A stretch of 64,000 nucleotides of DNA from positions 33,480,001 through 33,544,000 of the forward strand of contig NC_042998.1 of NCBI RefSeq assembly GCF_006345805.1, read 5' to 3'. The notes below the pieces were generated by a model. It had not been told where the DNA came from and ran no database searches. It was given only the letters and a program-made list of their open reading frames with translations. The stretch is from Octopus sinensis. Lineage: Eukaryota. The translations under genes were made by a program, and so were the position numbers. Every line of letters begins with the position of its first letter. Positions within the stretch are counted from its first letter, which is position 1. Shown here piece by piece: positions 1,250 through 60,611 of the stretch.

Positions 1250-1500
1250 CACAGCTTTTTCCAAGTATGTTAAATGAGCTAATGCTTCTTCCGTTTCATA
1301 TTTCAATCTTCTTAACATGGAAGTAGCGATTCCTGAATGTATGTGTAAGGCTATAGCACTGTGTGTATTCGCATGCGGAGTGCATGGCTGAGTCCAGGGT
1401 CTAAACGTCTTTTCTTGAGTAACAGATGGTAACGCCATTGTCCAAGTTTTTCGAATGAATAATATTGCTAACATAGTTATTACTTTGCCAGCTGGGTATC
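1250..1500 (-). CDS. Gene A coding exon 2, putative secreted Unpaired/IL-6-like helical cytokine (downstream exons lie left of the window)
   Basis: Acceptor ttacag|GATACC (phase 1), donor GTG|gtaaat (phase 0), 251 nt open. Encodes (G)[83 protein letters not shown]. Splice sites are conserved in two other copies. Confidence 0.85.
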
Positions 1501-2214
1501 CTGTAAGTATTTAAGATATACATTTACAATCAAAATACATTTACAACTAATTTACACGTGGAAAACAAAGAGAAAATATTCAATAATGAGCTGCTAATAT
1601 AAAGAAGTAATTGTAACCCATTGAGTGTCCAAAGCGTTTTCAGACGTTTGTCTTAAGCGTCCGTGCTTGCTTCCCAATTTTTAGCAAATCTTTGTTTCAT
1701 ACGTTCTGAGTAAAATAAAGCTTTCTTATCATGTCTCATGTCACTCTGGTAGTTGGAAGAAAAATTAGGAATGTGTATGATATATGATGCATGGACGCTA
1801 GGGTATTAGATGGAATACAGAGGACAAGCAAACGGTTAAAATTGGTGTGAGAAATGGATTTTACCATGATTCAGGACAATGAAATTTAGTGAGAGGTCAG
1901 AGTCATGTGACTGGCACTTATGGAACCAATGAGGGAATTACTGCGTGACCGCTCGACCTGCTAGAAATAAGAACCAAATCTTCCTCAAATCACAATCCAT
2001 CGATTAAATAAACGGCATATTGTTATAATGAGATCCTAGGTTCCCTATACATAGAGAAAAGACGAGATGGTCAAGGCTGGGTGCCTTGACCTTCTCGTTG
2101 AACTGGAGATTTGTTTGAAATGGAAAACTGATCGCGATAGGATTTGAACTCCGGATTCAGGGAACCATAACAAATACCACAAGGCTTTTATATAGATCGT
2201 TCTCGAATCACATC

Positions 2215-12511: not shown

Positions 12512-13231
12512 TCTATGTTTGACTTTTGCTTTATATTTGTACAAGTTGGCTCCAAGTCTCACCCAGAGACCTCAAGAGACAACAGGGTTGGAAGTTCATG
12601 TTGTTGTTATGCCTAGTGTGCCATATATTTGGGGGGTGGGGATGTTGTACTAATGAATGTCTAAAAAAAAATGTTTTTTTGGGGGGGTTTTTTTAAACCG
12701 AAAATTATGTTTGTTTTAAACCTTGAGATTACATAGAGAGTATTTTGCGTAGGATATGAGCAGTTCCCATGAGCACTATCTTTTGAACTTCTGCCATTTT
12801 TGGGTTTCCTGGTATCTGAGTTAGGTAGCTATCAGCCCCTTTTGCTATCATTCCCAGGGCACCTATGACAACAGGTATTGTTTTAGTCTTCAGCTTCCAC
12901 ATTTTGCTGATTTCTATTTCAAGATCTTTATATTTGCTCAGTTTTTGGTAGGTCTTGACAGATACGTTTATATCGATTGGGACAGTCATATCAATGAGGA
13001 GGCATGTTCTTTGTTTGAAGTCTTTCAATATGATGTCTGGCCTATTTGCATCTATCTTCCTGTCAGTTTGAATGGTGAAGTTCCAGAGGAGTGAGATGTG
13101 GTCATTTTCAAGCACTGGGGGTGGTTTGTGTTCCCACCAGTTTTTTTCATGGGGCAAATCCAGGTTTTTACAGATTACCCAGTGAATATATTGTGCAGCT
13201 CTATCGTGCCTGTTGAGATACTCTGTAGGCG
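12512..13231 (-). mobile_element. 5'-truncated REL-endonuclease non-LTR retrotransposon (R4/Dong-like) in a (TAA)n tract
   Basis: Open frame with RHD, RPDII, IDMTVP, KLSKYKDL and IPVVIGALG motifs of restriction-like endonuclease LINE C-termini. Stop at 12729, and (TAA)n on both sides. Confidence 0.85.
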
Positions 13232-13232
13232 C

Positions 13233-13411
<179 letters not shown>

Positions 13412-16816: not shown

Positions 16817-17137
16817 TTAATTATAATAATGCTGATAGCGACGAAGCAGCTTTCCATATCTGGAAATAACTACGAAATCTCTTTCATATCTTTTAAATGT
16901 GTTTCCAGCATGACGTAGTTTATGGGACATGACAGAACGAGGTGTCTCAAACATTTCGTTTACACCGGTAGAACGAAGCCACATTTGTAGTTCACAGAGT
17001 TGTGAGAAATTCTCAGATTGTAAATCATCCAATTCATATTTCATGTCTGAATTATCTTCATCGGAATACATTTGTTCCAGGAATACTGCGACCTTTGACA
17101 ATGCCACAAAAGCTTCACTATACGAAGCACTTTTATT
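16817..17137 (-). CDS. Gene B last coding exon (predicted helices B-D of the putative cytokine)
   Basis: Acceptor tttcttttacag|AAT (phase 0), 106 codons plus TAA: NKSASYSEAFVALSKVAVFLEQMYSDEDNSDMKYELDDLQSENFSQLCELQMWLRSTGVNEMFETPRSVMSHKLRHAGNTFKRYERDFVVISRYGKLLRRYQHYYN. Confidence 0.85.
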   Translation of the reverse strand, partial: NKSASYSEAFVALSKVAVFLEQMYSDEDNSDMKYELDDLQSENFSQLCELQMWLRSTGVNEMFETPRSVMSHKLRHAGNTFKRYERDFVVISRYGKLLRRYQHYYN

Positions 17138-18166: not shown

Positions 18167-18447
18167 AATGTTATTACCTGTCGGAATATACTTGATGCAC
18201 GTTCGAACTGGGGAAAAAGATACTCACTACGTTTTGTCACGCAGAATATATCCTGTTTGTTGACAAATGGTGTATACACATTTAGGTCAGCTCGCAGCAC
18301 CACTTACCTAGACTTTGAGTCTAAGTAGGTGGCACTGCGAGCTGATCATTTGTCAACAAGTGAGATATATACTCCGTGAGAAAATAGATAGTGAGTGGCT
18401 TGTTTCCCAGTTCGAACGTGTATCAAGCATATTCGGCTGATAACATT
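18167..18447. mobile_element. Imperfect fold-back (MITE-like) palindrome, about 280 bp
   Basis: Nested inverted matches: cacgttcgaactggg/cccagttcgaacgtg, ttgttgacaaatg/catttgtcaacaa, cagctcgcag/ctgcgagctg. Confidence 0.75.
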
Positions 18448-22209: not shown

Positions 22210-22466
22210 CATAGCTTTTTCCAAGGATGTTACATGATAAAATGTTTCTTTCGTTTTATATTTCAATCTTTTTAATATGGAAGGAGCGTCTTCTGGATCT
22301 ATGTTTAAGTCTATAGCACTGTCGGTATTCGCATACGGAGTGCATGGCTGATTCCAAGGTCTAGACGTCGCTTCTTGAGTAACAGATGGTAACGCCATTG
22401 TCCAAGTTTTTCGAATGAATAATATTGCTAACATAGTTATTACTTTTACTTTGCCAGCTGGGTATC
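22210..22466 (-). CDS. Gene B exon 2, copy b (257 nt, in-frame KV duplication)
   Basis: Same splice sites as 1250-1500. Contains PWNQPC and ends ...HVTSLEKAM|gtaaat. Confidence 0.75.
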
Positions 22467-24344: not shown

Positions 24345-24595
24345 CATAGCTTTTTTCAAGTATGTTACATGATAAAATGTTTCTTTCGTTTTATATTTCA
24401 ATCTTTTTAATATGGAAGGAGCGTCTTCTGGATCTATGTTTAAGTCTATAGCACTGTCGGTATTCGCATACGGAGTGCATGGCTGATTCCAAGGTCTAGA
24501 CGTCGCTTCTTGAGTAACAGATGGTAACGCCATTGTCCAAGTTTTTCGAATGAATAATATTGCTAACATAGTTATTACTTTGCCAGCTGGGTATC
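24345..24595 (-). CDS. Gene B exon 2, copy a (251 nt)
   Basis: Acceptor ttacag|GATACC, donor ATG|gtaaat. Ends ...HVTYLKKAM. Confidence 0.75.
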
Positions 24596-59875: not shown

Positions 59876-60611
59876 GAGTTTAGCCACGCCTTGTGGGCAC
59901 GTTGGTGCAGAGAATGGTCTGTGACACTCGCTACAACAGCTACCCCACCTCACGGAACTCATATCTCAGATGGGCCGCAGTTACCCCCAATCTGGCGAAG
60001 GAAACCGGCAGTGCGGGATCCAAAAACACCCGATGTCTCGGCGGCCACCTTATTGATTGTATGGTTGTTGCTGTTTAGTGTCAAATCGTTTTTCATTGAC
60101 ATAAAATCAAAGACATTTCATCCAACATCTTAATATAATAATTGTGAATGTCAGTGTGTCAGTGTGTCACGCTCTTTCATCTTTACTCCTAGAGGCCGTA
60201 GCCCAACATATCATACCATTTTGGAATCAGACCGACTCCGTGAGTTTAGCCACGCCTTGTGGGCACGTTGGTGCAGAGAATGGTCTGTGACACTCGCTAC
60301 AACAGCTACCCCACCTCACGGAACTCATATCTCAGATGGGCCGCAGTTACCCCCAATCTGGCGAAGGAAACCGGCAGTGCGGGATCCAAAAACACCCGAT
60401 GTCTCGGCGGCCACCTTATTGATTGTATGGTTGTTGCTGTTTAGTGTCAAATCGTTTTTCATTGACATAAAATCAAAGACATTTCATCCAACATCTTAAT
60501 ATAATAATTGTGAATGTCAGTGTGTCAGTGTGTCACGCTCTTTCATCTTTACTCCTAGAGGCCGTAGCCCAACATATCATACCATTTTGGAATCAGACCG
60601 ACTCCGTGAGT
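59876..60611. repeat. 366-bp tandem duplication
   Basis: 59876-60241 is repeated at 60242-60607, with GAGT microhomology at the junctions. Confidence 0.92.

Follow-up and report, generated by a model that had tools for sequence, protein, structure and literature searches.

What leaves a coding exon of two tandem gene copies more diverged than the intron beside it, and does such a pattern record selection on the encoded protein? The question is raised by two genes of Octopus sinensis, here called A and B. An initial annotation had aligned part of their second exons by eye and read the excess over the adjacent intron as diversifying selection on a receptor- or antagonist-binding surface. The window analysed comprises 64,000 nucleotides (G000:C2:33480001-33544000), and the cluster was mapped by genome searches together with 200 kb of left flank. 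It is a minus-strand tandem cluster with the 5′ to 3′ order C, B, A, D, followed by E, 65 kb beyond D. In A and B alike, a candidate first exon is followed by exon 2, a loop exon of 96 nt and a last exon of 321 nt; the splice sites are canonical GT-AG, the introns have phases 1,0,0, and the open frames span 236 and 238 codons. The parts of gene A are the following, in window positions unless a contig coordinate is given.

1250 to 1500, minus strand: exon 2, with a phase-1 acceptor and a phase-0 donor, holding the hydrophobic signal region
1250 to 1411, minus strand: divergence island in exon 2, containing all 27 A/B exon differences
1396-1382, minus strand: WxxPC motif in exon 2
1336-1250, minus strand: predicted helix A in exon 2, from the fold model
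1958 to 2000, minus strand: candidate first coding exon, 14 codons plus 1 nt, with a weak GT donor
2186 to 2195, minus strand: TATA-like box 5′ of the gene, inferred from sequence
G000:C2:33474241-33474336 and 33471530-33471850: the other coding exons, left of the window

Exon 2 encodes just the first 61 of the 199 mature residues, and two further coding exons lie downstream. An earlier reading of A, as a two-exon gene for a short peptide with its end near 560-600, gave way when these true downstream exons came to light. An insertion of about 370 bp (157-525) lies in the second intron of A, and B is without it. Gene B and the partial copy C are laid out as follows.

22210 to 22466, minus strand: exon 2 of B, with a private 6-nt in-frame duplication; its mature part is identical to P0001
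22928 to 22970, minus strand: candidate first coding exon of B
18178 to 18252, minus strand: in-frame 75-nt cassette of B, present in the RefSeq model P0001 and missing from P0002
17916 to 18011, minus strand: AB-loop exon of B, 32 codons, phase 0/0
16817 to 17137, minus strand: last exon of B, with predicted helices B, C and D and the stop codon
24345 to 25099, minus strand: copy C, limited to candidate exon 1 and to exon 2

The last exon of B is identical to P0001, annotated in Octopus sinensis as 'uncharacterized LOC118762197', and P0002 of O. vulgaris is the orthologue of B. The 75-nt cassette, at which A and B differ in 1 of 75 nt, is likely cryptic and was excluded from all codon and dN/dS counts. 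An inverted partial copy of it lies about 140 nt upstream (18390-18434) in A, B and D, which suggests that the cassette may have been exonised from a small inverted repeat.

The 5′ ends of the genes are less firmly placed. Candidate exon 1 of A overlaps a dispersed repeat fragment (41 of 45 among the genome matches listed are off-cluster), and contig depth at 1952-1988 is very high; because of this repeat it is no more than a putative exon. A strict donor pattern searched 5′ of A and E gave no convincing candidate. The first exon of the O. vulgaris model, which matches a stretch 8-10 kb upstream with a weak donor, was rejected. By hydropathy, a hydrophobic stretch that is a candidate secretion signal lies 5′ of a conserved LP in A, B and E, and an in-frame Met directly 5′ of it could be an alternative protein start. 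Upstream blocks at 6251-6903/28009-28669 and 9279-9930/35169-35825 are common to the A, B/C and D units and, within the 264 kb examined, limited to them; the second pair contains the first exon of the O. vulgaris model, and both are candidate regulatory or first-exon DNA.

Copy C is a 2.1-kb tandem duplicate of the 5′ end of B, differing from it at 7 of 1447 non-coding and 2 coding sites, and is either a true duplicate or an assembly artefact. Private coding differences of B are the 6-nt duplication and Y93S (22210-22466), and that of C is E95K (24345-24595). At each of these private changes the O. vulgaris orthologue shows the shared state, and the 6-nt insertion is absent among the contigs listed for the sequencing runs X2 and X3. 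These private changes may be assembly errors. Elsewhere in the window, 59876-60607 is an exact tandem duplication of 366 bp (100% identical), possibly an assembly artefact, and a minus-strand open frame at 12732-13406 resembles the C-terminal region of a protein from non-LTR retrotransposons.

Copy D (G000:C2:33454925-33462044, left of the window) is a duplicate of the A unit, at 96-97% identity, whose exon 2 was lost to a segment with 1.2-kb inverted arms. This palindromic segment (G000:C2:33458367-33461059, arms of 1.24 kb, 95% identity) sits at the expected place of exon 2. The loop and last exons of D are intact and differ from those of A by 10 nonsynonymous and 0 synonymous changes (P 0.05); D could be an alternative 3′ module spliced to exon 2 of A, whose phase matches, or a pseudogene. 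E is a distant paralogue (G000:C2:33412585-33415603) with three exons and the intron phases of A and B, about 36-37% identical to both and acidic (pI 5.2); no database protein was found for it, and its first exon was not located.

What do these genes encode? At the gathering score, P0002 and the exon pieces matched 0 of the Pfam families IL6, IL11, LIF_OSM and CNTF, and 3 of 48 relatives reach IL11 no better than at E 0.07; PDB sequence searches returned no meaningful match. The octopus rows were also without a match to the Unpaired family PF15972 (gathering score 27 bits), to which one of the 48 aligned rows, the beetle relative P0053, aligned at 19.4 bits (E 8.8e-4), below that cut-off. A profile built from four last exons brought up 58 proteins with E no higher than 0.001. 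Twenty of these matches were looked up, and the named ones were all 'uncharacterized' or 'hypothetical' mollusc and insect proteins. Relatives occur in a scallop (P0010), an ark clam (P0013), a snail (P0014), a sea slug (P0033), beetles, a bee and hemipterans, and WxxPC or a similar motif is present in 21 of the 25 database proteins checked, each of at least 190 aa. Matches of scallop P0010 in the octopus genome are confined to this cluster, which is the sole family locus detected there, as a lower bound. Two unnamed relatives, P0004 and P0006, group with the octopus clade and may point to a comparable set of clustered paralogues in a second animal.

An AlphaFold model of P0002, built on an alignment of 45 profile matches and two last exons, reached a pLDDT of 87.2 (37 only when folded from the single sequence) and contains four long helices at 67-96, 129-153, 157-183 and 207-232. 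The model aligns with IL-11 at Z 17.9 (rmsd 2.2, 155 residues), with CLCF1 at Z 17.4 and with IL-6 at Z 17.1, and the top 8 structural rows are all members of the IL-6 family, LIF, IL-27, OSM and CNTF included. Foldseek ranked the same family first, with no E at or below 0.001. In the Atlas, feature and structure neighbours agreed in placing the protein with helical cytokines of the long-chain type and with a cluster from molluscs (TM 0.85); an Atlas query with the last exon of E gave no usable match. The four long helices and the long AB and CD connections of the predicted model are those of a class I long-chain cytokine. Genes of this class have a first intron of phase 1 and later introns of phase 0, a pattern that the phases 1,0,0 of A, B and the distant E fit. 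By its fold, the A/B protein is predicted to be an IL-6/Unpaired-type cytokine.

The divergence in exon 2 is as described by eye. Between 1251-1420 and 22211-22380 there are exactly 27 mismatches in 170 nt, the figure first given as approximate; in the mature part of exon 2, 25 are nonsynonymous and 2 synonymous (CCC/CCT, ACA/ACC), and 22 of 61 mature residues change. From 1412 to 1568, A and B show no substitution. Exon 1 and the signal codons had been reported as identical apart from the 6-nt duplication of B; this is correct for the signal region, whose codons 16-37 otherwise differ at 0 of 66 nt, but not for exon 1 (2000-1958), which holds one ATT/ATC change, itself synonymous. A conversion tract may explain this identity as well as constraint does.

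How neutral, then, is the intron with which the exon was compared? Non-coding A/B sequence differs at 184 of 4901 sites (mean 3.8%), with values by region from 0.6 to 7.6% (chi-square P 2e-8), and a conversion test found an identical run of 308 columns (P 0.0005). In a three-way comparison of the 3′UTR, private sites number 2 in A, 2 in B and 11 in D, the younger duplicate of A. Here A is nearer to B than to its own younger duplicate, which argues for conversion; around the cassette, too, B is no farther from A than D is. Gene conversion has homogenised some of the introns and the 3′UTR. Intron 1 does differ by a few percent as first stated (11 of 431 aligned sites, 2.6%), but since introns were converted this baseline is too low and the exon excess measured against it is overstated. 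The fair neutral baseline is the most diverged, and least converted, intron, with 44 of 576 sites changed (7.6%). The scenario in which conversion homogenised the introns while the exon kept old neutral divergence had been named as one that would undo the claim; its conversion tracts are real in introns and UTR, but exon 2 still lies above 7.6%. That exons stand out as peaks between converted introns has been described as a mark of selection, and in opsins the divergence peaks under conversion mark the selected sites (PMC3924837).

Over the 199 mature codons, A and B are separated by 63 nonsynonymous and 9 synonymous differences (Nd 63, Sd 9). Counting methods give an omega of 2.2-2.9 (Fisher P 0.0008-0.016), and maximum likelihood gives 2.5 under MG (P 0.006-0.007) and 1.95 under GY-F3x4 (P 0.055), with dS resting on 9-10 changes. 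Neutral simulation of the mature pair returned P 0.016-0.027, its simpler count being 7 synonymous of 72. On the full coding sequence, the test that the initial annotation had proposed, omega stays above 1 at 1.75-2.2 (P 0.013-0.09; GY-F3x4 1.75, P 0.09). Mature nonsynonymous sites (63 of 461) also exceed the most diverged intron (P 0.001). By exon, the mature part of exon 2 has an omega of 3.9-5.6 (P 0.005-0.033, inflated, the exon having been chosen by eye), the loop exon has 11 nonsynonymous and 0 synonymous differences, and the last exon has 27 and 7; the two exons not picked by eye give 1.44-2.2 (P 0.03-0.38).

The last exon alone shows no significant excess (omega 0.93-1.56, dS 0.08-0.125), and it is here that a neutral reading finds its footing: exons under relaxed constraint would have drifted near-neutrally to an old divergence of about 10-12%, conversion would have erased the introns, and the low dS elsewhere would be an accident of small numbers. 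The real conversion tracts, the borderline GY-F3x4 tests and a pN outside helices A and C of 0.104 all suit it. This last value is indistinguishable from the intron (P 0.10), so that constraint in those parts looks weak. Against this reading stand the 36 nonsynonymous to 2 synonymous differences of mature exon 2 and the loop exon together, and the escape of exons beside converted introns, which itself requires selection against conversion. With the helix and charge results given below, relaxed constraint is an unlikely account of the pair. The claim of diversifying selection is supported for exon 2, the mature protein and helices A and C, but the contrast with the introns had been overstated and the last exon is close to 1. 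The positive-selection signal is real, statistically moderate, and sharper on helices A and C.

Where the changes fall was assessed with helix limits from the predicted model of the B orthologue P0002, not of A, and the helix and charge tests were chosen post hoc, after the data had been seen. Substitutions have hit 27 of the 57 residues in helices A and C, compared with 10 of 52 in helices B and D (P 0.002). The pN of helices A and C, 0.235, is threefold that of the most diverged intron (P 1e-6), which counts against neutral drift of old exons. Helix C, outside the exon inspected by eye, has a pN of 0.21 on its own (P 0.002 vs the most diverged intron). In the IL-6 family, the gp130-binding site II is made up of helices A and C (PMC10570509). 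The proposal of a receptor-binding surface gains from this concentration of changes on the predicted site II face, but tests for surface bias were non-significant: a helical-face test gave no significant avoidance of buried positions (P 0.22), and family hydrophobic columns were changed at 5 of 33 compared with 20 of 71 (P 0.22), again with no significant avoidance of the core.

The 57 residue differences, spread over three exons, also alter charge. Net charge is +15 in A (pI 9.8) and -4 in B (pI 5.6), a gap of 19 units, and of the 22 substitutions that alter charge, 19 shift A towards the positive side (sign test P 0.0009). A charge-blind simulation reaches the A/B gap in at most 0.25% of runs (P up to 0.0025), even with strong AT bias, and so one-sided a shift is unlikely under relaxed constraint. 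Net charge per residue of A is the second-highest of 65 rows and the highest among rows longer than 100 aa; E and most relatives are acidic, making A the charge outlier. B carries three N-glycosylation sequons and A one.

Could A instead be silent or dying together with D, having piled up AT-biased changes while B remained the sole working gene? A database protein exists for B only, D is without exon 2, and A has gained an unpaired Cys, lost two sequons and departed from the family majority at L143F and E179K. Yet its frame is open and its splice sites are canonical through 73 substitutions, and a pseudogene would show an omega of 1, not 2-5. The B branch has also changed about equally, and at the 57 sites the outgroup E shares the residue of A in 9 cases and that of B in 13. 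An early tree in which a fork had collapsed placed nearly all change on A/D, and the idea that only A changed was discarded when constrained trees gave branches of similar length (A 0.19-0.21, B 0.15-0.18). Since both branches show similar change, both copies have diverged, which is not the picture of a single decaying gene. From the non-coding indel rate, 3.5-3.8 frameshifts would be expected and 0 are seen in the A/B open frames (P 0.02-0.03), an argument weakened by the many 1-nt non-coding indels, possibly assembly errors. O. vulgaris P0002 has kept the B type, and no A orthologue was found in another species. Decay of A is on balance very improbable.

Sequencing runs bear on whether the two copies are distinct in the animal. 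DNA runs X2 and X3 each yielded one contig identical to A over 1212-1441 and a second with 29 or 31 differences from A, where A and B differ at 30; the A/B divergence is therefore no assembly error. The two runs come from one study, possibly the source of the assembly, and hence are not independent. In run X4, the contigs listed over exon 2 are of B type only (depth 7.6), with the B state at all 17 B alleles listed between 1316 and 1411, which is no proof that A is absent; coverage by run X1 is of intron and repeat parts only. None of the runs listed was an RNA run, which argues neither for nor against expression of A. Word depth of A-type and B-type contigs is 7.6 vs 4.1 in X2 and 68.5 vs 33.1 in X3, depth not being copy number. 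The roughly twofold ratio, with copy C and the 366-bp exact duplicate as signs of local assembly redundancy, would suit A and B as long-lived balanced alleles or haplotypes that the assembly has set in tandem. The introns of the A and B units, however, carry different mobile-element insertions, and a third unit, D, follows with its own rearrangement. The chance that this explains the locus is slight in the extreme, and balanced alleles so strongly diverged would themselves point to selection on those residues.

The preferred reading is that A and B are young tandem cytokine copies whose differences were likely fixed by selection on helices A and C and kept against conversion (probability about 0.68). 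Both would be secreted long-chain four-helix cytokines of predicted IL-6/Unpaired-like fold, and presumably ligands of a Domeless/gp130-type receptor acting through JAK-STAT signalling. Changes at site II may alter receptor affinity or signal strength. Selection may also have changed the heparan sulfate affinity of both proteins, such that basic A would bind heparan sulfate or matrix and act at short range, and acidic B, with its two extra N-glycosylation sequons, would travel farther. More tentatively, and with doubt prevailing, the cluster may supply the ligands so far missing in molluscs for the Domeless/IL6R-JAK-STAT pathway, within a protostome-wide Unpaired-like family, with a basic matrix-bound A and an acidic diffusible B splitting under positive selection, making different site II contacts and independently repeating the short- and long-range split of fly Upd.

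Positive selection on duplicated cytokines and islands of divergence under conversion are already known patterns. What the locus offers is a concrete candidate for the absent molluscan IL-6-type ligand, with relatives in bivalves, gastropods and insects. According to a 2026 survey, molluscs have the receptor, JAK and STAT but no canonical IL-6 ligand (PMC13203501). The literature searched, mostly open-access main text, contained no paper on a cephalopod or molluscan Upd- or IL-6-fold ligand. The A/B pair is a natural experiment in which 57 substitutions, densest in the predicted site II helices, and a 19-unit charge gap are set against less than 8% non-coding divergence.

Set beside the vertebrate IL-6 family, the octopus model aligns at Z 15.6-17.9 (rmsd 2.1-3.1, 134-164 residues), whereas the protein shares 8-11% identity with it and has no Pfam or PDB sequence match. 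The N-terminal WxxPC motif sets the octopus proteins and their mollusc and insect relatives apart from that family, and among these mostly acidic relatives octopus A is a basic outlier. Drosophila Upd carries a motif of the WxNPC type, and Upd is matrix-bound whereas Upd2 is diffusible. The Drosophila Unpaired proteins, ligands of Domeless, likewise form a small paralogue set of IL-6-like invertebrate JAK-STAT ligands, and fly Upd is described as a heparin-binding, matrix-bound glycoprotein (PMC3670241). The octopus proteins differ in having no PF15972 match and in a very young A/B split (non-coding divergence at most 7.6%). In the primate red and green opsins, tandem copies with converted introns keep their diverged exons apart through selection (PMC3924837). 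The octopus pair departs from the opsins in that its peaks extend over three exons and take in 57 residues, and that dN is higher than dS.
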